This document shows, one piece after another, positions 54,006 to 64,000 of a stretch of DNA of 64,000 nt. Made by a program: the position numbers and the translations under genes. This DNA comes from Vicinamibacterales bacterium (GTDB lineage Bacteria; Acidobacteriota; Vicinamibacteria; Vicinamibacterales; CAVVIG01), in contig JBFXAT010000015.1 of assembly GCA_050183995.1 (NCBI GenBank), positions 7,415 through 71,414 of the forward strand, written 5' to 3'. The notes below the pieces were generated by a model that saw only the letters and a list, made by a program, of their open reading frames with translations, made no database searches and was not told where the DNA came from. The number at the start of each line of letters is the position of its first letter. Position 1 is the stretch's first letter.

Positions 54006-55835
54006 CTACCGGGCCGCGCAGCCTGGTGGCGCACTGCCGCCGTAGGTCCAGCGCGGCCGCAGGCGATTCGTGAACGCGTCGGCGCTCAGACGGCCGGATC
54101 GACTGCGCAGCCAGTCCTCGACCACCTCGCGAACCAGCGGCGCCGCCGCGGGAGGACCGAGCGCCGAGCTTCGCAGCGCCGCGAGTGCGGGGCCCGGCAC
54201 GGGCGAGTCGATTCCGGCGAGCGCCAGGACCTCACCATCGCCAACGGGCTGCCCAGCGCGTGCGATTGCGACGTCCACGCGGCCATCGATGCAGCTTGCC
54301 TCGACCTGCACTCCCGACACGGCCAGTGTGCCGGCGCGTCCTCGCGCGAGCTCGTCGCGGATTACCCGTTTCAGATCGGCGCCGGTCACCTGCAGGCGGA
54401 GCAGGCGGTTGTCGAACGGGAAGACGTCGTACACCGCGCCGAAGGTCAGCGGTCCGGACAGAAGATCGGCGCGCAGCGCGCGAACGCCGCTGATGACCAC
54501 GTCTGCGCCGCTGCTTTCACGCAAGGCATCCGCGAACAGGTTTCCCAACGCGGACTCGGGTCCGCCGGCGCGTGGCAGCGGCAAGTCCACGGTCACGCCG
54601 AGCTCGGCGGCCCTCAGGCGCCTCACGCGGTCGAGTCCCGGCGCCATGGCTTCGACGACGGCGGGATCCGCCTGGACCGGGCGCCCCTCGTACGAGGCCC
54701 GGACCGTTCCCGCGGCGGCGTCGACGCATGTCGCATCGTTGCTCGCGCGCTGATAGGCGCAGATCTCCTGCGGCGCGAATGGCTTCACCTCGAGCACGCG
54801 ATGTGTGCGGGCGTCCACGGTGACATCGGCGCGCGCGAATGCGCGGCCGAACGGATAGGCCTGCACGATCGCGATGCCGTTGACGACGTGCGCGAGGGCG
54901 TCGTGCGTGTGTCCAGCCGCGATGACGTCGACCAGCCCGCGGGGAAGGGCCCTGGCGACGTCGAAGATCTCGGCGCTCCGATCGCACGACGCGAGGTCCA
55001 GCGGATCGTCGAACCGGCTGCACGATCCACCAGCGTGTGCGAGGACCACCACGGCGGTGGCGCCGGCCGCGCGGAGCGCATTTGCTTCGTCCGCAATCGT
55101 CGGAGCCAGCGGCGCGAGGGCGAGTCCGGCGACGTTGGGGGCGAGGGTGGATCGAAGTCCCGCGGCGGTCATGACCCCGATGAGCCCGATGGTCGTGCCA
55201 TTCGCCTCGACCAGCGTCGAGGCGCGGACGTTGGGCCACGCGACGCGGCGGCCGGTGTGCGCGTCGAGCAGGTTGGCGGCGAGAAACGGGTAGTGCGCCT
55301 GTGCGGCGCGCGCCTCGAGTGCGCCGTGAGGATCGGCGCCGGCATCCTCGCGCGCACCGGGCAGGTCGACCGCTCCGAAATCGAACTCGTGGTTGCCGAC
55401 GGCTGCCGCGGTGTAGCCCATCGCGTTGAACGCGTCGACGAGGATCGCGCCTTCGCTGAGGTTCGACTCGATGCCGCCCTGGAACGTGTCGCCGGCGTCG
55501 ACCAGCAAGACCGAACCGCCGTCCGCGGCGCGCGCCGCGCGCAGGTTGTTCACGTAGCCGGCGAGCAGCGCCAGCCCGCCGCGATCGTCCCTCGCGAAGG
55601 CGAACCCGTGCAGGTCGGTCGTGCTGACGATCGAGAGCGTGATCGTCGTCCACGGCCGCGTTTCCGCCGCCGGCCACGCGGGTCGCAGGGCGGCGACCAG
55701 CGCGAGGGCGAGCGTGCACGTCAGCCACGGTGCGGAGCGGGAAGCGCGCACGAGGGGAGACTGTAGCAGCGTCGAGCGTCTCTCGAAACCCCAGGTGTTC
55801 TCCTGGAGGCAGAGGCGCTTCCGGCGCCGAAGCAC
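54006..55835 (-). CDS. Secreted bifunctional metallophosphatase / 5'-nucleotidase (UshA-like)
   Basis: TTDLHG, DAGDTFQG and GNHEFDFG are calcineurin-like metallophosphoesterase motifs, followed by a 5'-nucleotidase C-terminal domain. The true start is probably GTG 55751, which places the signal peptide at the N-terminus. Confidence 0.88.
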   Translation of the reverse strand: MLRRRKRLCLQENTWGFERRSTLLQSPLVRASRSAPWLTCTLALALVAALRPAWPAAETRPWTTITLSIVSTTDLHGFAFARDDRGGLALLAGYVNNLRAARAADGGSVLLVDAGDTFQGGIESNLSEGAILVDAFNAMGYTAAAVGNHEFDFGAVDLPGAREDAGADPHGALEARAAQAHYPFLAANLLDAHTGRRVAWPNVRASTLVEANGTTIGLIGVMTAAGLRSTLAPNVAGLALAPLAPTIADEANALRAAGATAVVVLAHAGGSCSRFDDPLDLASCDRSAEIFDVARALPRGLVDVIAAGHTHDALAHVVNGIAIVQAYPFGRAFARADVTVDARTHRVLEVKPFAPQEICAYQRASNDATCVDAAAGTVRASYEGRPVQADPAVVEAMAPGLDRVRRLRAAELGVTVDLPLPRAGGPESALGNLFADALRESSGADVVISGVRALRADLLSGPLTFGAVYDVFPFDNRLLRLQVTGADLKRVIRDELARGRAGTLAVSGVQVEASCIDGRVDVAIARAGQPVGDGEVLALAGIDSPVPGPALAALRSSALGPPAAAPLVREVVEDWLRSRSGRLSADAFTNRLRPRWTYGGSAPPGCAAR

Positions 55836-55891: not shown

Positions 55892-55925
55892 CTGCGTCAG
55901 TATTGAGGCTGCGTCAGTATTGAGG
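55892..55925. repeat. Perfect 17-bp tandem duplication (ctgcgtcagtattgagg x2) spanning the stop codon of the 23-haem cytochrome gene
   Basis: Copy 1 is 55892-55908 and copy 2 is 55909-55925. Copy 2 encodes P-Q-Y-stop of the gene ending at 55914. Confidence 0.9.
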
Positions 55926-57710
55926 ATGACAGGCCGAGCAGGTGCGCCCGACCAGGTACCGGACGGCGACGCCCTCGCCAGAGGGGAAGCGGCCGCGTTC
56001 CGGTTTGTGGCAGTCCTTGCAGGCATAGCGGCCGTGGAATCCGTCGAAGAAGTCCTTCAGCTCGCGGTGTACGTACGAGCCGCCGACGTGGAAGGTCGAT
56101 GCCGTGTGACATGCGGCGCACGTCGCGCCGAGCTGTCCGAGGTGCACGTCGCTGTGGCACGTGACGCAGGCCGGTTCGATTGGCTTGAACCGGACGGCCG
56201 TACCCGTGTGCGCAGGGAAAGCCGTTGTCTGGGTGACGTGACATGTCGAACACGCGATCGACGCGTGCGCCCCTTCGAGCCGCAGCCGTGCGCGTTCGTG
56301 TGAGAACGCCAGCGCTTCGAACCCGCGCCCGTCGATCGCGTGGCATTGATCGCACGAAGGGTCGAGCTGTCCCAGGTGCGGATCGGCGTGGCACGTCACG
56401 CACTGCATCGACGGCAAGGCGGCTGGCGCAGGCCGCTCCGCTCGACTGGGGATGTGGCACTGCGTGCACGTGAGCGCCTGGTGAGCGCCTGCGAAGAATT
56501 TCGGTTCTCGCGGGTGGCGGAAGTCTTTCACGCTGAATGTCGCCTGGCTATGGCACGTGTCGCACGCCCGCCCGAACGACCCTTGATGGGGGTCCCGCGC
56601 TTCGTGGCACGACACGCACGCCGCGGTGGCGCCGCTGAAGTCGACGGTCCGCTTTGCCAACGGGACGGTTCGGTCGGATACGCCCTCGTGGCACTTGTCG
56701 CACGAGATCTCGGCATGTCTGCCCTCGAGCGCAAACGTGGTCTTCGCGGCGTGATCGAACGGCGCTCCCGCGAACGATCGCTCGGTGTGACATGAGGCGC
56801 AATCGCCCTCGATGCTCTGTCGATGCGGGGTGTCGTGGCATGACGCGCACGTGCGCGACTCGATCGCGATGGTCGCGCGCCCACGCTTGTGACACGCCTC
56901 GCAGGCGACGCGCGTATGCGCGCCGGCGAGGGGGAAGCGCGTGCGTTCGTGCGCGATGGTCCGCGTCGTCCACGCCTGTGTCGTGTGGCACGAGGTGCAG
57001 GCGGCGCCCAGCCGCCGCTCGTGCGGCTCGCGGTGACACGCCGTGCACGAGGCAAACGCCACGCCCGTGAACTGGCTGCGGTCCTGGCCGCTCGTGTGGC
57101 ACTGTTCGCACGCAGCCGTCCGATGGGCGCCGGTGAGCGGGAAGCGTGTCGTACGGTGATCGAACGATGTGCGCGCCGTCTTGAACGATGGGCTTGCCGG
57201 AGGGTGGCACGTCGCACACGCGCCTGCCAACGATCCCTTGTGCGGATCGTCATGGCACGTGTCGCAGCCTGGCTTCAGATCCAGAAAGGACCGGCTCTTG
57301 TGGCACGCCGTGCATGTACCAGCGACCTTGGCGTGGGCTCCGGCGAGCGGAAATCCCGCCTCCGCCGAATGGTCGAAACGCTTCGTGTCGATGGGCCGCA
57401 GCTCGCCGTCGGCTCCAGCGTGCTCGACGTGGCAGATCACGCACTGTGTCGCTTGGCGGTGGACGCCTTTGCGGCTGGCCAGGCGGACCGCAATCGGCTG
57501 GTGACACGAGAGGCACCGGTCCGTACTCACTCTGCGTCCTGCTTCGTGGCACCGCTGACACTGATTGCCCTCGAGCTGACGATGTGCACGCGACAACCCG
57601 CCGGGTGAGAGAAGGGCGCTCAGCTGCCCGGCATCGGCTGGCGATACCGACAGGAGCCCAACGGCCATCGCCGCCACCAACGTAGGCACCAGCCCAAGGC
57701 CGCCGCCCAT
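55914..57710 (-). CDS. Periplasmic or extracellular multihaem c-type cytochrome, 23 CXXCH motifs, built from cytochrome-c7-like repeats
   Basis: 598 aa from ATG 57710, with a signal-like N-terminus (MGGGLGLVPTLVAAMAVGLLSVSPADA). I counted 23 CXXCH motifs in the translation. A recurring module is F-x-H-x-x-H ... C-x-x-C-H ... C-x-x-C-H-x-x-P-H. Confidence 0.9.
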   Translation of the reverse strand: MGGGLGLVPTLVAAMAVGLLSVSPADAGQLSALLSPGGLSRAHRQLEGNQCQRCHEAGRRVSTDRCLSCHQPIAVRLASRKGVHRQATQCVICHVEHAGADGELRPIDTKRFDHSAEAGFPLAGAHAKVAGTCTACHKSRSFLDLKPGCDTCHDDPHKGSLAGACATCHPPASPSFKTARTSFDHRTTRFPLTGAHRTAACEQCHTSGQDRSQFTGVAFASCTACHREPHERRLGAACTSCHTTQAWTTRTIAHERTRFPLAGAHTRVACEACHKRGRATIAIESRTCASCHDTPHRQSIEGDCASCHTERSFAGAPFDHAAKTTFALEGRHAEISCDKCHEGVSDRTVPLAKRTVDFSGATAACVSCHEARDPHQGSFGRACDTCHSQATFSVKDFRHPREPKFFAGAHQALTCTQCHIPSRAERPAPAALPSMQCVTCHADPHLGQLDPSCDQCHAIDGRGFEALAFSHERARLRLEGAHASIACSTCHVTQTTAFPAHTGTAVRFKPIEPACVTCHSDVHLGQLGATCAACHTASTFHVGGSYVHRELKDFFDGFHGRYACKDCHKPERGRFPSGEGVAVRYLVGRTCSACHPQY

Positions 57711-57726
57711 GATGGCTCCAGCGTAC

Positions 57727-58653
57727 TCACTCCGAGAACGGCACATACCCCATGTACAGCGTGACGCCCACGTGAGCGACGACAATAGCGAACATGATGT
57801 AGACGAGCGGCATGTGGAACACATGCCAGAGCTCGAACAGCTGCTTCGTTCGGCGAAGGTGGGCCATCCGGCGAAGCAGGGTGGCACGTTCGGTTCCGAT
57901 CGCGATCACCCGCTCGTGCACGCTGGACGCACCGGGCAGGTGCGTGACCGCCGCTTCGAAGCGAGCGACCTCCCGTCGCAGAACGTGCTCTACGGTGAAC
58001 ACGGAGAAGTAGCTGACGTCGCCTGACGGCACGACTCGCTGCTCGAACTCCTCGATCGCACGCAAGAGGAGCTCAGGAACCGATCCGTCGGCCAGTTCCC
58101 GCCCGAGGTCGGCCGCGCGGCGGTTCAGATCGGCTTCGTCCACCTCCAGGCCACGGAGCGTCCTGGGGATCCTGTTGAACAGGTACCGCCCGATGAAACC
58201 GGACGACACGACGATCATCATGGACCAATACGCGACCGAGATGATGCCCCCGAACTTGAACGATGTGTGAAAGGTGACGAACACTGGGCCGACGATGCCG
58301 CAGAAGATGTGCAGGTCGAGCCACCGGCGCATCGACCCGAGGTTGCGCAGCCGCTTCATCTTCTTCCGAACCGCGTACGCGACGGGCATCAACATCATGA
58401 CGAAGCCGATCACGCCGAACAGGTGGCCGACGCGTCCGGTCGGCCGCAGCAGTGGGTGCGCCGCGGTGTAGCCGCGAATCGCCGCGGGTGCGGTGTAGTA
58501 GCTCCATCCGTCGAGGCCGATGAGGATGTAGGAAGCAATGCCGGCCGTTGCGATTCCGCTCAGCACCAGCACGTTGGCGACGGCAGCCCTGGCCCCGGAG
58601 ACCGCGGTCCCGGCGGTGGCACTGGGCTGTGGACGGGGAGCGGACGCCTGCAT
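57727..58653 (-). CDS. Integral membrane protein with two H-x13-H transmembrane helices (candidate di-haem b-type electron carrier)
   Basis: 308 aa with about 5 TM helices. One helix has LHIFCGIVGPVFVTFH (H-x13-H) and another has FHMPLVYIMFAIVVAHV (H-x13-H). A roughly 110-aa soluble loop lies between the fourth and fifth helices. Confidence 0.7.
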   Translation of the reverse strand: MQASAPRPQPSATAGTAVSGARAAVANVLVLSGIATAGIASYILIGLDGWSYYTAPAAIRGYTAAHPLLRPTGRVGHLFGVIGFVMMLMPVAYAVRKKMKRLRNLGSMRRWLDLHIFCGIVGPVFVTFHTSFKFGGIISVAYWSMMIVVSSGFIGRYLFNRIPRTLRGLEVDEADLNRRAADLGRELADGSVPELLLRAIEEFEQRVVPSGDVSYFSVFTVEHVLRREVARFEAAVTHLPGASSVHERVIAIGTERATLLRRMAHLRRTKQLFELWHVFHMPLVYIMFAIVVAHVGVTLYMGYVPFSE

Positions 58654-58656
58654 GCG

Positions 58657-60033
58657 TCAGGCATCCACCGTGCAGTCGCTGACCACCTGCGTCACGCAGG
58701 CCAGCACGTAGCCGGCGGCGCGATCCTCGTCGTCCAGGATGGTCGACGGGCAGGTCGTCTCGCCGCTGATGATCTTCGTGCGGCAGGTGCCGCACACGCC
58801 CTGTCGGCAGAGCGATGGGATGTCGGCCCCGCAGCGCTCCGCCGCTTCGAGCAGCGTCTGGGTGCTCTCGACTGTCGTCGTCTGGCCGCTGCGCTCGAAG
58901 GTGACGTCGTGACCCGCCTCCGGCGAGACGTGCCCGTCGCCGACGGGCGGAGGTGGCTCGGCGGTGCGGCTGCTGGCGGCGATCGCCGCCTGGAACACTT
59001 CCGACCGGATCTGCGAGCGGGGCACACCGACCCTGTCGAGCATCGACGTCATGGCGTCGATCATCGGCTGCGGCCCGCAGAGGAGACAGACGCTGTGGCC
59101 CACGTCCGGGACCACGGCACCAATCAGAGACTCGCAGATGCGCCCCGGGAAGTAGCTGGGTCCGGCGGGGCCATGTGTAATCGCGATGGCGACGCGGACA
59201 TGATCGTTTCGTTTCGCGATCAGATCGAGCTCGTCGCGAAACGCGACATCCTCGACGCGGCGCACCGAATAGAGCAGCGTGATCGGGCGCGTCGGCTCCG
59301 TCTCGACCCCGTGCCGCAGCATCGACATGAGCGGCGTGATTCCCACCCCTCCGGCCACCAGGACGAGCGGCCGATCGTCGTCGGTCGGGTAGCAGAATGA
59401 ACCCGCGGGCTGCCGGATGGTGAGCAGCGATCCCGGTCGAATCGTCGCGTGCAAGGCGCCCGAAACGAGTCCGAGGCGTTTGACGGAGATCTCGAGATGC
59501 CCGCGGACGCCGGGCGACGAGCTGATCGAATAGCAGCGTACGTGTTCGCGACCGTCGGCGCGCAGGCGAACGGTGAGGAACTGGCCGGCCTTGAACGCGA
59601 AGCCTTCCGGCCGCGCAAGACGGAACGTCCGGATGTCCGGTGTCTCTTCGAAGACCGCCATGACCGGCGCCTGCACGAACGCCGATGGTCGGCGCGCGGC
59701 TTGGGCAATGCCCTGGATCAACCTGGGCTCGCTCGCCGCGGCCCGTCTTGTCGCGGTCGCATCTACCGATCGTGGTCGCGTGGGGAATTTTTCCCCGGGC
59801 ACGAGCAGTCTCTCGCATGCGATGAACCACGCCACGTGTGCGGCGAAGCCGATAGCGAGCCCGATCGGTGTTGGCAGCAACCAGGGAGACGCGGCGAACA
59901 GGAGTGAAATCGCAGTTACGAAATAGCGACTCGCGCCGCGTGTGGTGCGCTGCGAGCGGAGCACGACCAGCGCGAGGTGTAAGGTCGTCGTAAACGCGAG
60001 AATCGACGAAGCGGCCGGCAGTGACACGTTCAT
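58657..60033 (-). CDS. Membrane-anchored ferredoxin-NAD(P)+ reductase-like flavoprotein with a C-terminal plant-type 2Fe-2S ferredoxin domain
   Basis: 458 aa from ATG 60033 with about 3 N-terminal TM helices. The FAD motif is RCYSISS, the NAD(P) motif is LVAGGVGITP, and the C-terminus has CRQGVCGTC...C (Cx4Cx2C...C). Confidence 0.88.
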   Translation of the reverse strand: MNVSLPAASSILAFTTTLHLALVVLRSQRTTRGASRYFVTAISLLFAASPWLLPTPIGLAIGFAAHVAWFIACERLLVPGEKFPTRPRSVDATATRRAAASEPRLIQGIAQAARRPSAFVQAPVMAVFEETPDIRTFRLARPEGFAFKAGQFLTVRLRADGREHVRCYSISSSPGVRGHLEISVKRLGLVSGALHATIRPGSLLTIRQPAGSFCYPTDDDRPLVLVAGGVGITPLMSMLRHGVETEPTRPITLLYSVRRVEDVAFRDELDLIAKRNDHVRVAIAITHGPAGPSYFPGRICESLIGAVVPDVGHSVCLLCGPQPMIDAMTSMLDRVGVPRSQIRSEVFQAAIAASSRTAEPPPPVGDGHVSPEAGHDVTFERSGQTTTVESTQTLLEAAERCGADIPSLCRQGVCGTCRTKIISGETTCPSTILDDEDRAAGYVLACVTQVVSDCTVDA

Positions 60034-60210: not shown

Positions 60211-61305
60211 ATGTCCCGTCGATCGATCGTCGAGTTCGTGACGCGCAGCGTCCTGTCTGTCGTGGTGTGTGGTGTTGGCGCGCAGCACGCTGTCGTTGCG
60301 CAGAAAAAATCCGCACCAGACGCGCGCGCGGAAAAATCCCCGCCGCCACAGTTGGTGTGGCCGCTACCGCCGGAACCTCCCCGCATCCGATTTCTTCGTG
60401 CCTACCGGGGCCCCGACGATGTGAAGGGCGGGAAGAAGAAGTCGTCGAGACTCGCGTCACTGATACTGGGCCCTCAGGTGTCAGGTCAAGTGACGGACGC
60501 ACTCGTGAAGCCGTACGGTGTCGCGGCGTCGAGCGCCGGCGTGATCTACGTGGCTGACTCCGCGTCACGGCGGGTGCACGTCTTCAACCCGGAGGCGCGA
60601 ACCGTCACGTTCCTGGGTGAGCGGGGCAACGGCAGGCTGGTGAAGCCGATTGGCGTCACCGTCGACGCCGCCGACGTGGTGTATGTTGCCGACGCGACGC
60701 TGAAGCGCGTGTTCGGCTACGGGCCCGAAGGCGCTCTGCGCATTGCGCTCGGGCGCGACGGTGAGCTCGAGAACCCGTCCGGGATTGCCATAGACCCCTC
60801 TGGTGAGCGGCTGTACGTCGCCGATGCGTCGAAGCACCACGTGGTCGCGTATTCGACGGAGACCGGGGCGATCGTGCGCACCATCGGCAGGCGCGGCGAG
60901 GCCGAAGGGGAGTTCAACTTTCCCACCAACATCGCGGTCGATCGGCGCGGGTGGCTGTATGTGGCCGATACGCTCAACTTCCGCATCCAGATGTTCGACG
61001 CCGAGGGGCGCTTCGTGCGCACCTTCGGTCAGATCGGCGACAGCTTCGGCTCCATGAACAGACCGAAGGGCATCGCCGTCGACAGCGAGGGGCACGTCTA
61101 CGTCGTGGACGCCTCGTTCAACAACTTTCAGATCTTCGACGAGCAGGGTCAGCTGCTCTTGTTCGTCGGGTCCGGCGGTGCGGGCTCCGGTGAGTTCTTT
61201 CTTCCAGCCGGGATGTTCATCGACGCGCAGGACCGCATCTACGTGGCGGACCAGGGGAACGCGAGAGTGCAAGTATTCCAGTATCTGAATGGAGCGAGCA
61301 GATGA
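60211..61305 (+). CDS. Secreted NHL-repeat beta-propeller protein
   Basis: 364 aa with a signal-like N-terminus. Six repeats follow the pattern P-x-G-(I/V)-A/T-V-D-x-x-G-x-(I/V/L)-Y-V-A-D, including NFRIQMFD and NARVQVFQ. Confidence 0.85.
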   Translation: MSRRSIVEFVTRSVLSVVVCGVGAQHAVVAQKKSAPDARAEKSPPPQLVWPLPPEPPRIRFLRAYRGPDDVKGGKKKSSRLASLILGPQVSGQVTDALVKPYGVAASSAGVIYVADSASRRVHVFNPEARTVTFLGERGNGRLVKPIGVTVDAADVVYVADATLKRVFGYGPEGALRIALGRDGELENPSGIAIDPSGERLYVADASKHHVVAYSTETGAIVRTIGRRGEAEGEFNFPTNIAVDRRGWLYVADTLNFRIQMFDAEGRFVRTFGQIGDSFGSMNRPKGIAVDSEGHVYVVDASFNNFQIFDEQGQLLLFVGSGGAGSGEFFLPAGMFIDAQDRIYVADQGNARVQVFQYLNGASR

Positions 61306-62072
61306 AACGAGCCAGTTTCATAGCAGGACTCGCATTGCTGCTGTCGGCGAACAGCAGTTATGCGCAGAACACATCGACAATCGCCGGCGGGCCGCACGAC
61401 TTGAGTACGGGCAGTGCGGTCAGGAACTCGGACAGCACCATCAACGGCCAGACCTGTGTCTTCTGTCACACGCCGCACGGCGGTTCGACGAACCAGCCGC
61501 TCTGGAACCGGACCAATCCCGGCACGGCGGGATACCAGGTCTACACGAGCTCGACGAGCAATACGACCGCCACGGCGACCGCGGTCGTGTCGGGCGTGTC
61601 GGGGGCCTGTCTGAGCTGCCACGACGGCACCATTGCCATGGACGTGGTGACCAACGTCAACGGCACGACGTTCGGCACGGCGCCGACCGGCGGATCGGTG
61701 GGCTTCACCAAGCAGGGCACCGCCAAGGCCGACTACACAAACGGGAGCGGGGGCACCGGCAACGTCATGCTGAGCGGCATGCCGTTCATCGGCACGGACC
61801 TGCGCAACGACCATCCCGTGGCGATCCAGTACAAGACCGCCTACGACGCCGACACGACGCACTACCGGGCGGCCACGCTCTCCGGCAGCAAGCTGTTCGT
61901 CTCGAATGCCGGTGTCCAGCTGCCGCTCTACGGCACTACGTTGGCCGACGCGACGGTCGAATGCGCCAGCTGCCACGATGCGCACAACAACTCGCTGAAC
62001 GGCACCAACGGCGGATTCCTCCGCGTGTCGAATGCCAACAGCGCGATGTGCAGCACCTGCCACAACAAGTAG
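61302..62072 (+). CDS. Secreted tetrahaem c-type cytochrome (OmcS/OmcE-like motif layout)
   Basis: 256 aa with a signal peptide (cleavage likely after SYA). The four CXXCH motifs are CVFCHTPH, CLSCHDG, CASCHDAH and CSTCHNK at the extreme C-terminus. The linkers are Ser/Thr/Gly/Asn-rich. ATGA overlap with the NHL gene. Confidence 0.85.
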   Translation: MKRASFIAGLALLLSANSSYAQNTSTIAGGPHDLSTGSAVRNSDSTINGQTCVFCHTPHGGSTNQPLWNRTNPGTAGYQVYTSSTSNTTATATAVVSGVSGACLSCHDGTIAMDVVTNVNGTTFGTAPTGGSVGFTKQGTAKADYTNGSGGTGNVMLSGMPFIGTDLRNDHPVAIQYKTAYDADTTHYRAATLSGSKLFVSNAGVQLPLYGTTLADATVECASCHDAHNNSLNGTNGGFLRVSNANSAMCSTCHNK

Positions 62073-62082
62073 CAGGTGGCCC

Positions 62083-63087
62083 GTGCGACTCCCGTTCCTG
62101 ACGATCCTCGTTCTGCCGCTCGCCAGCGCCATGGTTACGGCGCAGCGGGCCGTGCCGTCACACGAACCATCCTCCCCGAGGCCCGCCACGGCAACGGTTC
62201 CCGGGGTGGCGCGGGTGAACGGCGTGGCGATCTCGAAGGACAGGCTGGATGCCGCCGTCTCGGCGCTGGTCCCGCAGGAGTCGTTTCACCGCAGCGTGAA
62301 GCCCGAGAAGATGGCGGAGCTGCGAGCGAAAGCGCTCGCGACCCTCATCGACGAGGAGCTCGCCTATCAGGACGGTATCCGCCGCGGGATCGCCGCGGCG
62401 GATACCGACGTCCGCCGCTCGTGGGCCGACATGGCCCGCACCTACGGTGGAGACGCCAAGTTTCGTGCGGCCCTTCAGACGGCCCATGTCGCGGAGGCGA
62501 CCGTTCGGCAGGAGATGGCGCGTCGGGTCGTGATTGGGAAGAGCGTGGACAGCGCGGTCACCGGCCGTTGTGCCGTCGGTCTCGAGGAGGCCGCCGCCTT
62601 CTTTCGAGACAATCCCGCCCGTTTCCTCGAGCCCGAGCAGGTGCACGTGTTTGGCATCACCATCGGCGTCGACCCGAGCGGTGGCGCCGCCGCGTGGCGC
62701 GCGGCCCGCGCGCGGGCGGACGACGCGGACCGTGCCCTGCAGGCGGGCCGCCCGTTTTCGGAGGTGGCCGCCGAATACTCCACCGACCCCAGCCGCAGCC
62801 AGGGCGGCGACATGGGGTTCGTCCATCGCGGCAGCATGAACGCGCCCTTCGAGGAGATCGTGAAGACCCTCGAGGTCGGACGCACCAGTCCCGTCATCGA
62901 GTCGCTCTACGGCTATCACATCCTTCGCCTCTCGGAAGTGCGGCCGCCGGTCCGCAAGACCTTCGAGCAGGTGTCGGCGACCCTACGCCGGGACCTGACA
63001 GCGAGGCGGTGCGCCGAGCGCAAGGCGGCGTGGCTGGCGGATCTGCGCAGCGGGGCGCGCATCGAGACGTTCGAGCCCACGCGATGA
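62083..63087 (+). CDS. Periplasmic PpiC/parvulin-type peptidyl-prolyl isomerase (SurA/PrsA-like)
   Basis: 334 aa from GTG 62083 with a signal-like N-terminus. The SurA-N-like chaperone region contains VNGVAISKDRLD. The parvulin core is FSEVAAEYSTDPSRSQGGDMGFV...PFEE...GYHILRL. Confidence 0.85.
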   Translation: MRLPFLTILVLPLASAMVTAQRAVPSHEPSSPRPATATVPGVARVNGVAISKDRLDAAVSALVPQESFHRSVKPEKMAELRAKALATLIDEELAYQDGIRRGIAAADTDVRRSWADMARTYGGDAKFRAALQTAHVAEATVRQEMARRVVIGKSVDSAVTGRCAVGLEEAAAFFRDNPARFLEPEQVHVFGITIGVDPSGGAAAWRAARARADDADRALQAGRPFSEVAAEYSTDPSRSQGGDMGFVHRGSMNAPFEEIVKTLEVGRTSPVIESLYGYHILRLSEVRPPVRKTFEQVSATLRRDLTARRCAERKAAWLADLRSGARIETFEPTR

Positions 63088-64000
63088 CATCCGCGGTCCG
63101 CGCCGCGGCGGCCGGGCTGCTGCTCGTCGTGGGGACCACGGCGCACGCGCAGGTCATGTCCGGCACCGCGCAGGTCGACGTCATCGGCTCCGGTACGCGC
63201 ACGCGCGGCATGGACAGCCGCGACAACATGGTCGCGCAGACCTACACGTTCAACTGGGCTTCGCCGCTGATCGACGAGCGCCTGGTCCGGTACGACCTCG
63301 GCACCTCGTTCTCGACCTTCCGCCAACGCGCGACGCGGCCCGACCGCGCCGACCAGACCGGGCGCGCCGGCAACCTCGGTTACCAACTCGGCGCGCAACT
63401 GCTGTCGGCCAGTCCGTTTCCGCTCACGGTTCGCCTGTCCCGGCTGCGAACGACGTCGCTGGGGGATCTCGGTCTGACCAACCCGATCCGCAACGGCCTG
63501 ATCTCGGCCAGCGGCGCGCCTCCGTCCGACTACGAAGCCATCAATCACGACATGATGCTGAACTGGCATGTCGGACTCGGGCGCCTGCCGACGGTGGACC
63601 TGTCGTATCGGCGCAACTCGTCGGACATGAGCGGCGGCAATATCGCGGCATCGCAGCAGGCGCGCAATCTCACCACGGCGGTGTCAAAGTCGTCACCGCG
63701 CACGCACTACACGCTCCGCTATCAGTCGTCACACGCCGAGAACCATCTCGACCAGACGTACACGCAGCGGCTCGGCACGCTCGACTACGCCTTCGGCGCG
63801 ACCCTGACGAAACACAGTCGCCTGAATGTCACCGCCGGCCGCCGCAGCGCCTTCTCGCGTGTGCTGTTCCAGGTGCCGTCCGACACGGCCACCGGTGCCT
63901 ACGCCCCGCCGGTCGATCCGGGCGGCGGGGGCAGCGGGCTCTACGGTCAGGTGGGGTACCACTACGATCCGGGGAGCCGGTTCACGCTGCGCGCGACGGC
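63084..64000 (+). CDS. Partial CDS (5' part, runs off the window): probable outer-membrane beta-barrel protein
   Basis: This ORF is absent from the supplied track because no stop is reached. I translated it by hand from ATG 63084 (ATGA overlap with the PPIase stop) and found no stop through 64000. It has a signal peptide (MTSAVRAAAAGLLLVVGTTAHAQ) and then alternating beta-strand-like text rich in Y/R/N/G/T. Confidence 0.6.
   Translation, partial: MTSAVRAAAAGLLLVVGTTAHAQVMSGTAQVDVIGSGTRTRGMDSRDNMVAQTYTFNWASPLIDERLVRYDLGTSFSTFRQRATRPDRADQTGRAGNLGYQLGAQLLSASPFPLTVRLSRLRTTSLGDLGLTNPIRNGLISASGAPPSDYEAINHDMMLNWHVGLGRLPTVDLSYRRNSSDMSGGNIAASQQARNLTTAVSKSSPRTHYTLRYQSSHAENHLDQTYTQRLGTLDYAFGATLTKHSRLNVTAGRRSAFSRVLFQVPSDTATGAYAPPVDPGGGGSGLYGQVGYHYDPGSRFTLRAT

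Follow-up and report, generated by a model that had tools for sequence, protein, structure and literature searches.

Gene content of the locus

Three closely packed genes on the minus strand of the window (the whole 64,000-nucleotide stretch of DNA that was analyzed) encode a flavoprotein, a membrane protein, and a multihaem cytochrome. The first, g1 (58657..60033), was assigned from its open reading frame, translation, and Pfam matches as a membrane-anchored FNR-type NAD(P)H oxidoreductase of 458 residues with a C-terminal plant-type [2Fe-2S] domain. The second, g2 (57727..58653), encodes a putative di-haem cytochrome b of 308 residues that carries the signature of the PCC3/PCC4 inner-membrane protein (IMP), based on its reading frame, motifs, alignments, and an AF2 model. 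The third, g3 (55914..57710), encodes a secreted 23-haem c-type cytochrome of 598 residues, as indicated by its reading frame, CXXCH count, and Pfam match. The reading frames and spacing given in the initial annotation were confirmed, with 3 nt (cgc) between g1 and g2 and 16 nt, including a GGAG, between g2 and g3. The ATG start of g1 is backed by a homologue alignment and an independent gene call, and GC3 of the three genes is 0.79-0.84 in these frames. The domains, motifs, 23 CXXCH sites, and tight spacing exclude a chance origin.

The N-terminal membrane domain of g1 (residues 1-76; 59806..60033, minus strand) contains three hydrophobic helices, all within residues 7-76 by hydropathy, with the N-terminus outside. 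It is followed on the same strand by a FAD-binding domain with the motif RCYSISS (residues 125-215; 59389..59661; PF00970 FAD_binding_6, E 1.5e-11), an NAD(P)H-binding domain with GGVGITP (residues 225-328; 59050..59361; PF00175 NAD_binding_1, E 5.8e-17), and a [2Fe-2S] ferredoxin domain (residues 378-450; 58684..58902; PF00111 Fer2, E 5.3e-18). All three exceed their Pfam thresholds, and hydropathy and the profile searches bear out the earlier reading of g1 as about three transmembrane (TM) helices joined to an FNR-like module and a plant-type 2Fe-2S domain. Across 32 aligned Acidobacteriota homologues the cluster motif C409-x4-C414-x2-C417-x28-C446 is invariant, as are H19, S43, W51, and W69 of the membrane domain, while H66 is 94% conserved. 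The loops predicted to be cytoplasmic hold 3 and 8 Lys plus Arg residues versus 0 and 0 in the periplasmic loops, and sequence and topology analysis identified no export signal in g1; the positive-inside rule therefore supports a cytoplasmic location for the FNR and 2Fe-2S domains, as the proposed electron path demands.

Family-level assignment of g1 is less specific. The top NCBIfam matches belong to the Hcr/GbcB/PaaE class and every one falls under its equivalog cut-off, the PDB sequence matches are benzoate and phthalate dioxygenase reductases, NAD_binding_6 is matched weakly (23.2 bits versus a cut-off of 22.2), a point of similarity to NOX/FRE proteins, and TIGR01941 (NqrF) is matched at E 2.4e-15, far below its cut-off. 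NqrF, the subunit that feeds NADH electrons into the membrane complex of Na+-NQR, likewise combines a membrane anchor with plant-type [2Fe-2S] and FNR-like FAD/NADH domains, but its domain order is TM-Fer2-FAD-NAD rather than the 3TM-FAD-NAD-Fer2 of g1. Na+-NQR pumps Na+ and delivers its electrons to ubiquinone; other Nqr subunits are absent from the triad locus.

The cytochrome g3 has exactly 23 CXXCH motifs and 46 cysteines together with a Sec-type signal peptide (residues 1-27), confirming its description as a secreted 23-haem protein. It consists of seven c7-like trihaem modules of approximately 70 residues and a closing dihaem module, which gives 26 residues per haem, and matches Pfam Cytochrome_C7 with 92.6 bits and PDB 3OV0 with E 0.001. 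The C7 match and the seven trihaem repeats liken it to the c7 trihaem polymers of the GSU1996 type, although GSU1996 has 12 haems. An N-terminal PGGLSRAH lies 16 residues ahead of the first CXXCH of g3, and the corresponding PGxL[ST]xxH occurs 16 residues before the first haem site of the first downstream cytochrome at 52 of 77 loci, always in the first cytochrome.

The membrane protein and its relatives

Hydropathy and the AF2 helices give g2 five TM helices, and the loop charges (2/5/18 versus 2/1/0) indicate an N-in topology. The two helices with H-x13-H noted initially are present as TM3 (58261..58329, minus strand), with W111-x3-H115-x13-H129, and TM5 (57754..57828, minus strand), with W276-(H277)-x2-H280-x13-H294. 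H115 and H129 are invariant in both alignments, A1 and A2, H277 is near-invariant, and all four paired histidines, including H280 and H294, are invariant among 58 relatives of 24-46% identity. The pairs lie at matching depths within the membrane: counting from the cytoplasmic end of either helix, TM3 or TM5, one is reached after 4-6 residues and the other after 18-20, so that both the conservation and the in-membrane placement on which the earlier proposal depended hold. Between them, TM4 (58174..58242, minus strand) carries the invariant S151-G152-x2-G155, an SGxxG motif as defined previously (PMC5566968). TM4 and TM5 are separated by a helical insertion (residues 161-275; 57829..58173, minus strand), placed in the cytoplasm by loop charges, with 18 Lys plus Arg residues, AF2 helices at 173-237 and from 246 onwards, and conserved E204, L259, and R261. 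This insertion, which is shorter in proteobacterial forms, could serve as a docking surface for the FeS domain.

These features correspond to a protein predicted from gene clusters. The published IMP has approximately 300 residues and five TM helices, with SGxxG on TM4 and a WX3HX13H on each of TM3 and TM5 (PMC5566968), and g2 has every one of these motifs, a match judged on the published motif description rather than on the Sideroxydans or Leptothrix IMP sequences. By this signature, which is exact, g2 is not wholly new but appears to represent the inner-membrane protein that was predicted for PCC3/PCC4 in 2017; the clusters and their conserved IMP are themselves bioinformatic predictions only (He et al. 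2017, Front Microbiol, PMC5566968; Hoover et al. 2023, PMC9900912). In PCC3/PCC4 the periplasmic cytochrome beside the IMP has 21, 24, or 27 haems, similar to the 23 of g3. The published PCC3 clusters contain no flavoprotein gene and their IMP was proposed to serve the quinone pool in Fe(II) oxidizers, whereas the triad has a conserved TM-anchored FNR-2Fe2S neighbor (a 4Fe4S-flavoprotein in other phyla). We found no literature linking the PCC3/PCC4 IMP to NAD(P)H flavoproteins.

Searches of g2 against Pfam, NCBIfam, and PDB sequences returned no match above threshold. Sub-threshold matches among the 58 relatives point to three families of two-haem cytochromes b, namely DUF4405 (40/58), Ferric_reduct (25/58), and Ni_hydr_CYTB (13/58), with a best DUF4405 E-value of 5.7e-6 among the relatives and 14.4 bits for g2 itself against a cut-off of 26.7. 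The initial annotation had likened the locus to a split NOX/ferric-reductase module, and as an analogy of motifs this stands: in NOX/FRE proteins of the FRD superfamily electrons also pass from NAD(P)H through FAD to a transmembrane stack of two bis-His haems b, and the His pairs are 13 residues apart on TM3 and TM5 (PMC3591440; PMC5566968). As a statement of homology it does not. We rejected g2 as a demonstrable FRD/NOX homologue, since it has five TM helices instead of six, falls below the Pfam threshold for Ferric_reduct (13.1 bits versus 28), retrieves nothing with E < 0.7 in a Foldseek search of its AF2 model (pLDDT 84.7), and aligns to MsrQ by hhalign at E 0.08-0.13 over TM5 only. Any kinship to FRD/NOX is thus apparent only at the level of motifs and sub-threshold matches. 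NOX/FRE proteins further differ in having the dehydrogenase fused to the six-TM domain, no FeS cluster, and O2 or Fe(III) as acceptor, while g2 has a 115-residue cytoplasmic insertion.

A second comparison is offered by the "flavinylation-associated" cytochromes (DUF4405, PepSY-like FoxB, and MsrQ-like), small proteins with several TM helices and four conserved, centrally placed His that are proposed to be transmembrane electron carriers, one of which, a DUF4405 protein, was shown experimentally to bind haem b (PMC11334425). They share the four conserved His with g2, and DUF4405 is the commonest sub-threshold Pfam match of its relatives, but they have six TM helices and are partnered with ApbE-flavinylated extracytoplasmic proteins rather than multihaem cytochromes c. 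The two-component, NOX-like E. coli chain Fre-MsrQ-MsrP, which is fed by NADH and in which quinones are not the donor (PMC12525009), resembles the triad in running from a cytoplasmic FNR-family flavin reductase through a haem membrane protein to a periplasmic redox protein. It differs in each component, as Fre is soluble, unlinked, and lacks an FeS cluster, MsrQ is a true FRD protein (PF01794) with six TM helices and one haem plus FMN, and MsrP is a molybdoenzyme rather than a multihaem wire.

Conservation of the triad and the source of electrons

The identity of the donor to g2 is the point on which the published model departs from an NAD(P)H-fed chain. He et al. proposed a quinone link for the IMP (PMC5566968), in which case g2 would connect the multihaem cytochrome electronically with the quinone pool, like CymA, ImcH, CbcL or FdnI, HyaC, g1 would be a regulator or an ancillary feeder of the NAD(P)H:quinone type, and quinones would not be bypassed. 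We identified no quinone-site motif in g2, but the sub-threshold similarity of 13 of the 58 relatives to Ni_hydr_CYTB, a quinone-reactive family, leaves room for such a site. The precedent of MsrQ cuts both ways, as this FRD protein binds ubiquinone and yet quinone was shown not to be its donor (PMC12525009).

A survey of gene neighborhoods around homologues of the 308-residue protein found the triad co-localized, as predicted: at 37 of 37 Acidobacteriota loci examined the g2 homologue is immediately preceded by an FNR-Fer2 gene and followed downstream by one or two cytochromes with 9-93 CXXCH. Most counterparts of g3 have 24 haems, and at many of these loci another giant cytochrome comes next, together with a putative barrel protein. 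In Ignavibacteriota and Bacteroidota the position of g1 is held at 42 of 46 loci by a non-homologous protein with a single TM anchor, 2x[4Fe-4S], and a Pyr_redox_3 (FAD/NAD(P)H) domain, followed by a 20-haem and then 20-45-haem cytochromes; cultured Emticicia oligotrophica has the same arrangement of 4Fe-4S flavoprotein, IMP, and cytochrome. In all, a membrane-anchored NAD(P)H/FeS flavoprotein from one of two unrelated families adjoins the IMP at 79 of 83 loci. Such a replacement is difficult to account for if the membrane protein does not exchange electrons with an NAD(P)H-linked FeS protein in the cytoplasm, and among the sequence comparisons it provides the strongest single support for an NAD(P)H-fed reading; with quinol as donor, a dedicated FeS donor would be superfluous. 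The flavoprotein is nevertheless missing from the described proteobacterial PCC3 clusters and, within 7 kb, from two Ignavibacteriota loci with IMP and cytochromes, indicating that the IMP may also use the quinone pool or an unlinked donor, and two other loci have IMP and flavoprotein with no cytochrome within 5 kb. On balance, we regard a quinone-coupled g2 as unlikely.

A smaller form of the triad is present on 52 proteobacterial plasmids, where a TM-anchored FNR-Fer2 protein is combined with a 7-haem cytochrome and a short IMP in which the motifs are retained. Within the copper/heavy-metal resistance islands that house them, these small triads have as neighbors genes for P-type ATPases, multicopper oxidases, and DUF2933/ICMT as well as a metal-responsive regulator, and their FNR proteins bear a His/Met-rich periplasmic domain.

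A candidate route for electron export

Divergent from g1 on the plus strand is an operon that harbors an OmcE homologue within a Uet-like gene set. Its first gene encodes a six-bladed NHL-repeat beta-propeller (60211..61305; PF01436, 116 bits) that is also kept beside the triad at loci L001 and L088. The second encodes a tetrahaem cytochrome (61302..62072; 4 CXXCH) that matches PDB 7TFS, the nanowire subunit OmcE (PMC12954529), with E 3.3e-28. Next come a SurA-like PpiC-type peptidyl-prolyl isomerase (62032..63087; Rotamase_3 E 4e-18, SurA_N_3) and a putative outer-membrane beta-barrel of 607 residues (63084..64000), whose translation shows a signal peptide but matches no Pfam family; the window end cuts this gene, which is complete at L088. 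Beyond it the same contig encodes another NHL/SGL propeller and a cytochrome with 11 CXXCH. By composition, this order of NHL, tetrahaem, isomerase, putative barrel, NHL, and 11-haem genes corresponds to UetH/I, A, B, C, and J (PMC9900912), although the trihaem UetD/E/G are missing.

Considered together, these sequence features make it probable that the triad is a quinone-independent, NOX-like electron-export module. In this scheme g1, anchored in the inner membrane and with its catalytic domains facing the cytoplasm, would oxidize NAD(P)H at the FNR-type FAD site and pass single electrons from FAD to the C-terminal [2Fe-2S] cluster. The cluster would reduce a cytoplasmic-side haem b of g2 held by H115 and H280, and the electron would cross the bilayer to a periplasmic-side haem b held by H129 and H294 before moving to the conserved N-terminal module of g3. 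The order of cofactors initially proposed, from NAD(P)H through FAD, 2Fe-2S, and two b haems to a c-haem wire, is thus supported by the domains of g1, the depth and conservation of the g2 histidines as presumptive haem ligands, and the CXXCH motifs of g3. By analogy with the 12-haem GSU1996, the c7-type trihaem units of g3 could be long enough to span the periplasm, handing electrons to the putative barrel, the 11-haem cytochrome, and the OmcE-type filament cytochrome of the divergent operon and perhaps finally to acceptors outside the cell, for instance Fe(III)/Mn(IV) minerals or humics. CymA, ImcH, CbcL/CbcBA, and Listeria Ndh2-DMK-EetAB likewise link metabolism at the cytoplasmic membrane to multihaem or flavinylated carriers in the periplasm or outside the cell, but to our knowledge every one is fed from the quinol pool, whereas the triad would draw directly on NAD(P)H and would bypass that pool. 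If so, a soil-type Acidobacterium could feed external acceptors straight from NAD(P)H, skipping the usual quinone step.

Disposal of NAD(P)H electrons without energy gain needs a physiological rationale. Since outward flow would be aided by the membrane potential and no energy would be conserved here, the triad is likely to be an NAD(P)+-regenerating sink or an extracytoplasmic reductase rather than a coupling site. The same chain might therefore act, parallel to MsrPQ, in detoxification, metal handling, or repair (Cu, Cr(VI), Fe(III) chelates, oxidants) instead of dissimilatory extracellular electron transfer, consistent with the metal-resistance setting and His/Met-rich domains of the small triads and with a chromate transporter gene directly upstream of the triad at loci L002/L003. 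However, the partner is a giant haem wire both in the window (23 haems) and in relatives (up to 93), and the genes alongside add a filament cytochrome of the OmcE type, a putative porin, and a cytochrome with 11 haems, equipment that suits long-range transfer to insoluble acceptors and would be excessive for a soluble periplasmic substrate; this role for the triad is accordingly doubtful.

Reverse operation, in which Fe(II), a cathode, or reduced minerals outside the cell would donate electrons that pass through the cytochromes and g2 to g1 for reduction of NAD(P)+ in biosynthesis, appears very improbable. FNR-type enzymes are reversible in principle, and PCC3 and Uet clusters have been reported from bacteria that oxidize Fe(II) or a cathode. 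Against this, the membrane potential would oppose inward flow, transfer from Fe(II) to the NAD(P)+ couple (about -320 mV) would be uphill with an energy-coupling subunit absent, and we know of no lithoautotrophic iron oxidizers among the Acidobacteriota, Ignavibacteriota, and Emticicia carriers. In the export direction that we favor, the H19/H66 pair in the membrane domain of g1 might, more speculatively, hold an additional relay cofactor.

Composition of the three-gene operon

Three genes are tightly packed on the minus strand, in the arrangement given by the initial annotation: g1 (60033-58657, 458 aa) encodes a flavoprotein, g2 (58653-57727, 308 aa) a membrane protein and g3 (57710-55914, 598 aa) a multihaem cytochrome, with gaps of 3 nt between g1 and g2 and 16 nt between g2 and g3, and a GGAG ahead of g3. 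The coding frames are plausible since third-position GC in all three (0.79-0.84) suits a genome of 68% GC, and the g1 start at 60033 is backed both by the onset of homologue alignments and by an independent gene call in the public copy of the same contig. The closest named relatives come from Vicinamibacterales (Acidobacteriota) metagenome-assembled genomes (MAGs). Scans of the operon for promoters and terminators returned nothing above chance, and an Rfam scan returned no RNA family.

The g1 product combines FAD_binding_6, NAD_binding_1 and Fer2 domains, each above its Pfam threshold, with three hydrophobic helices N-terminal to them, as the initial annotation had read it. The RCYSISS and GGVGITP motifs satisfy the RxYS and GGxGxxP class patterns, and the Cys ligands of the cluster motif Cx4Cx2Cx28C are invariant in 32 homologues. 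Domains and motifs together place g1 among the FNR-like reductases with a C-terminal plant-type 2Fe-2S domain (the Hcr/PaaE/GbcB/PDR class), with no NCBIfam equivalog match to a named member (191.9 against a cut-off of 383 for the Hcr-type PRK10684, and 191.5 against 500 for GbcB). The named members of this class are soluble, whereas g1 carries a conserved three-helix membrane domain (residues 1-76; window 59806-60033, minus strand). In being a membrane-anchored 2Fe-2S/FNR protein, g1 resembles NqrF, a subunit with that architecture.

The FAD, NAD(P)H and 2Fe-2S domains are predicted to be cytoplasmic, the side that the proposed chain calls for, because lysine and arginine are concentrated after TM1 (three residues) and TM3 (eight residues) and lacking at the N-terminus and the TM2-TM3 turn, and because no Sec or Tat signal was found in g1. 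Within the anchor, four residues never vary (H19, S43, W51 and W69), and 30 of 32 homologues keep H66; H19 and H66 lie 6 and 10 residues, respectively, from the cytoplasmic helix end. It is a matter of speculation whether these two histidines could ligate a further cofactor, possibly haem, or touch g2. If a third haem were present at this position, the complex would contain a three-haem transmembrane relay.

The g3 product is a secreted cytochrome with a Sec signal peptide and, as first counted, exactly 23 CXXCH motifs, arranged as seven trihaem c7-like modules and one dihaem module at 26 residues per haem. Matches to PF14522 (92.6 bits) and PF14537 (58.5 bits) identify it as a c7/c3-type multihaem cytochrome c; most of its Acidobacteriota relatives have 24 haems. 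Its N-terminal segment contains PGGLSRAH, an instance of a motif, PGxL[ST]xxH, that lies 16 residues before the first CXXCH in 52 of 77 loci, across phyla and invariably in the cytochrome that comes first after the g2 homologue.

A membrane protein with PCC3/PCC4 features

No Pfam, NCBIfam or PDB-sequence match above threshold was obtained for g2, and the only PDB sequence matches of g2 and of its alignment profile, designed coiled coils aligned through a helical insertion, were discounted. Relatives are nonetheless plentiful, with 2,937 clusters at 50% identity (E up to 1e-3) and at least 590 GTDB species genomes in a scan with one of our two g2 alignments (A1), and they fall in the Acidobacteriota, Ignavibacteriota, Bacteroidota and Pseudomonadota. 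Hydropathy and the AF2 model both give five transmembrane helices, and the two H-x13-H pairs pointed out in the initial annotation lie within TM3 (W111-x3-H115-x13-H129) and TM5 (W276-x3-H280-x13-H294). Among 58 relatives sharing 24-46% identity, which make up the more diverse alignment (A2), only 13 columns are invariant, and these include all four histidines; W276, S151, G152 and G155 are likewise invariant, and W111 and H277 are at least 90% conserved. The SGxxG of TM4 (S151-G152-F-I-G155) is invariant in both alignments. H277, near-invariant and unpaired, sits at the cytoplasmic end of TM5.

The loop charges (lysine plus arginine: 2, 5 and 18 on the cytoplasmic side; 2, 1 and 0 on the periplasmic side) argue for an N-in topology, and in that model H115 and H280 would lie 6 and 4 residues, and H129 and H294 20 and 18 residues, from the cytoplasmic end. 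The result is two candidate bis-His sites, separated by about 14 residues on parallel helices, as in two-haem transmembrane cytochromes b. The g2 product is a conserved and probably di-haem membrane protein.

Assigning g2 to a named family is more difficult. When each of the 58 relatives was scanned against Pfam, matches below threshold recurred for DUF4405 (40 of 58, best E 5.7e-6), Ferric_reduct (25 of 58 at E up to 1, best 1.5e-4) and Ni_hydr_CYTB (13 of 58), three families of a single Pfam clan. A DUF4405 protein has been found to bind haem b by pyridine haemochrome (PMC11334425). The score of g2 itself against DUF4405 (PF14358) is 14.4 bits, below the cut-off of 26.7, and against the ferric reductase domain superfamily (FRD; PF01794, which includes NOX, FRE and MsrQ) it is 13.1 bits, below the cut-off of 28. 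A Foldseek search of the PDB with the AF2 model (pLDDT 84.7) gave a best E of 0.75, with no NOX, STEAP or DUOX match and cytochrome b561 at E 1.8; this null result is uninformative, probably because a 115-aa helical insertion may mask the core and because helical bundles carry little information. Comparison of A2 with Escherichia coli MsrQ by hhalign gave E 0.08 for a single sequence and 0.13 for a 12-sequence profile, the latter being shallow because the MsrQ relatives found were all at least 84% identical, and comparison with YodB gave no significant match. The likeness to a split NOX/ferric-reductase module suggested by the initial annotation stands as an analogy only. The TM3 and TM5 His pairs, predicted to bind two haems b, fit the FRD in spacing (12-14 residues), conservation and depth; the Pfam score, Foldseek, hhalign and the helix count do not, as g2 has five helices against six in the FRD, with g1 adding three in trans. 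On these grounds, g2 cannot be assigned to the FRD family.

A closer counterpart was described in 2017, when PCC3 and PCC4 clusters were reported in Fe(II)-oxidising and other Proteobacteria with a conserved but unannotated inner-membrane protein (IMP) of about 300 aa. This protein spans the membrane five times, carries SGXXG on TM4 and WX3HX13H on both TM3 and TM5, and was proposed by the authors as a quinone-active cytochrome b with two haems (PMC5566968). Each of these described features is present in g2; later papers still regard the IMP as uncharacterised. In PCC3 the IMP gene accompanies genes for a periplasmic cytochrome of 21, 24 or 27 haems (PMC9900912), a porin and an extracellular cytochrome. 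Here the 23-haem g3 adjoins g2, and a putative barrel and further cytochromes are placed in a divergent operon and not in the same one. No linked flavoprotein is described for the published PCC3 clusters, and the PCC4 "other redox proteins" are given without domain names in the supplements (PMC5566968). A literature search for a system of NAD(P)H flavoprotein, IMP and multihaem cytochrome yielded the PCC3/PCC4 papers only. The parts are thus all of known kinds, and the pairing of the membrane protein with a giant cytochrome was already predicted in 2017. What appears to be new, as far as the literature tells, is the conserved, phylum-spanning link to two unrelated kinds of membrane-anchored NAD(P)H/FeS flavoprotein and the proposal that follows from it, a quinone-independent route from NAD(P)H to multihaem cytochromes.

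Gene neighbourhoods and the proposed electron route

The best-supported reading is a chain from g1 through g2 to g3. Electrons would pass from NAD(P)H to FAD and the [2Fe-2S] cluster of g1 on the cytoplasmic side, then to a haem b at H115/H280 and a second at H129/H294 in g2, and from there to the N-terminal module of g3, along its 23-haem wire and on to outer-membrane and extracellular cytochromes. The domains, the conserved ligands, a topology that follows the charge rule and the genomic coupling of the genes are observed. Precedent for the logic of such a chain exists in the NOX/FRE enzymes (PMC3591440) and in the Fre-MsrQ-MsrP relay, for which the quinone pool has been excluded as donor (PMC12525009). 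The membrane-anchored NqrF is a further precedent.

The decisive evidence for reading the three genes as a unit comes from their neighbourhoods, which we surveyed by calling ORFs in 83 loci and searching them with g1, g2 and CXXCH counts. An FNR-Fer2 gene lies directly upstream of the g2 homologue in 37 of 37 Acidobacteriota loci (Vicinamibacterales, Thermoanaerobaculaceae, Holophagales and others), retaining the N-terminal membrane domain wherever the contig permits, and one or two cytochromes with 9-93 CXXCH motifs follow, so that the co-localisation anticipated for the triad is borne out. In Acidobacteriota loci other than that of the window, another giant cytochrome and a protein resembling a barrel come directly after. 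The largest cytochrome has 93 CXXCH in 2,332 aa, with its ORF running off the locus end (L023 7851-14846), and others have 64 (L021 9062-13999) and 62 (L008 7777-12612). A search for a cultured Acidobacteriota carrier, including Geothrix and Thermoanaerobaculum, found MAGs only.

FNR-Fer2 is absent from all 46 Ignavibacteriota and Bacteroidota loci. In 42 of them the g2 homologue is adjoined by a non-homologous flavoprotein of about 445 aa, whose single TM helix is N-terminal and which carries a pair of [4Fe-4S] ferredoxin motifs together with a Pyr_redox_3/Pyr_redox_2 domain for FAD and NAD(P)H (for example, within L036-L083, L038 7835-9175 and L044 8474-9811), and the pair is followed by a 20-haem and then a 20-45-haem cytochrome. 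The cultured Emticicia oligotrophica DSM 17448 has such a cluster on plasmid pEMTOL02, in which the cytochrome-biogenesis gene ccsA precedes the IMP, an NAD(P)-binding protein (L084 9848-11170), 23-haem and 40-haem cytochromes and a barrel-like protein. The occupation of one slot by two unrelated membrane-tethered NAD(P)H/FeS flavoproteins is expected if the cytoplasmic partner of the IMP is an NAD(P)H-linked one-electron donor.

Two of the four remaining loci are incomplete at the contig level. Two Ignavibacteriota loci (L062 and L069, 6953-14183) have the IMP and three cytochromes with no flavoprotein within 7 kb, and together with the published PCC3 clusters that lack a linked flavoprotein they count against the favoured chain and speak for a quinone site in g2, a less likely alternative; the paired flavoproteins of the other loci are the pattern expected of an NAD(P)H-linked donor. 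Also against the chain, L049 and L072 have the IMP and flavoprotein with no cytochrome within 5 kb. Five metagenomic proteins (P0124, P0192, P0229, P0261 and P0248) appear to fuse the IMP with Fer2, with Fer4 and Pyr_redox, or with a c7 cytochrome; these could be real or merged calls of neighbouring overlapping genes, and they are weak evidence because overlapping neighbours merge easily through sequencing or gene-calling errors.

The triad also exists in a compact form, carried by 52 plasmids from Proteobacteria (Methylophaga, Sphingomonads, Legionella, Bradyrhizobium BTAi1 and others; for example L085 5073-8427, L086 2924-6283 and L087 3040-6511). Its flavoprotein (610-660 aa) has a signal peptide, a His/Met-rich periplasmic domain, one TM helix, FNR and Fer2; its IMP (230-250 aa) keeps the W..H..H and SGxxG motifs of the PCC3/PCC4 protein and is named "iron reductase" in one record; and its cytochrome is TM-anchored with 7 haems. 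These compact triads are located inside copper/heavy-metal resistance islands. One Acidobacteriia MAG, with at least 53 haems in its triad cytochrome, has a ChrA chromate transporter gene (PF02417; L002/L003 4684-6000) directly upstream of FNR-Fer2, an adjacency that may connect the system with the reduction of chromate or metals. Given the metal islands and the chromate transporter that abuts the triad in L002, the same chain may serve metal reduction or detoxification rather than a respiration-like disposal of electrons.

Under the favoured g1-g2-g3 chain, we infer cofactor occupancy, the contacts between proteins, the direction of flow and independence of quinone. Outward flow would be electrogenic and helped by the membrane potential, with energy dissipated and not conserved, and an export step of this kind suggests an electron-sink or reductase role. 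Reverse flow, in which the chain would take up electrons, would be thermodynamically unfavourable unless a coupling device were present. The structural observations of the initial annotation hold, and its interpretation of the three genes as an electron chain across the membrane is supported with the caveats set out here.

We advance more tentatively, and with a little less than balanced confidence, the broader view that this system is a widespread respiratory bypass, a complete quinone-independent NAD(P)H:extracellular-acceptor oxidoreductase in which a swappable NAD(P)H/FeS flavoprotein feeds a dedicated di-haem b conduit and, through it, periplasm-spanning 20- to 90-haem wires and OmcE-type filaments. 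To our knowledge, every characterised extracellular electron transfer route in Gram-negatives starts with a quinol dehydrogenase. A route started by NAD(P)H, if true, would represent a different bioenergetic design, suited to redox balancing, and would redefine the donor side of "PCC3" systems, supply the missing inner-membrane step of extracellular electron transfer in phyla abundant in soil and sludge, and offer a testable donor for the PCC3/PCC4 IMP, which since 2017 has been a component of candidate iron-cycling clusters with no assigned role. It could also account for electron disposal in soil, peat and wastewater phyla that are abundant, mostly uncultured and equipped with giant cytochromes, a question of relevance to electromicrobiology. 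The hypothesis is directly testable because tractable carriers exist: small plasmid-borne forms are known in Legionella, Sphingobium and Methylophaga, and cultured Emticicia oligotrophica DSM 17448 has the full one.

Genes beside the operon

A gene for a secreted, UshA-like 5'-nucleotidase/metallophosphoesterase (54006-55835, minus strand) lies 78 nt downstream of g3; it was rejected as a member of the system, being conserved in the nearest relatives only. On the other side, an operon transcribed divergently from g1 on the plus strand begins with an NHL propeller (60211-61305) and continues with a tetrahaem cytochrome (61302-62072), a SurA-like PPIase (62032-63087) and a putative outer-membrane barrel of 607 aa with a signal peptide and no Pfam match, whose gene begins at 63084 and runs past the window end (64000). 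Apart from the tetrahaem cytochrome and g3, the 64-kb window has no c-type cytochrome genes. Homology to the nanowire subunit OmcE (PDB 7TFS, E 3.3e-28) and four CXXCH haem sites identify the tetrahaem protein as OmcE-type and make it a candidate filament former. Beyond the window, the operon continues on the same contig (L088 956-8164, minus strand of L088) with a second NHL/SGL propeller and an 11-CXXCH cytochrome.

By gene composition as listed, the divergent operon resembles the Uet cluster of cathode- and iron-oxidising bacteria, which comprises the tetrahaem UetA, the PPIase UetB, the porin UetC, the NHL proteins UetH/I and the undecahaem UetJ (PMC9900912). Taken with the triad, this composition means that the locus holds candidates for every envelope layer. 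The same divergent layout is found in L001, L004, L005 and L016. Of these, L005 (CALQBJ020000061.1) is labelled as a "Bifidobacterium breve" MAG and has 68.8% GC, a full Vicinamibacterales-like triad and the OmcE-like gene; the contig is almost certainly mis-binned.
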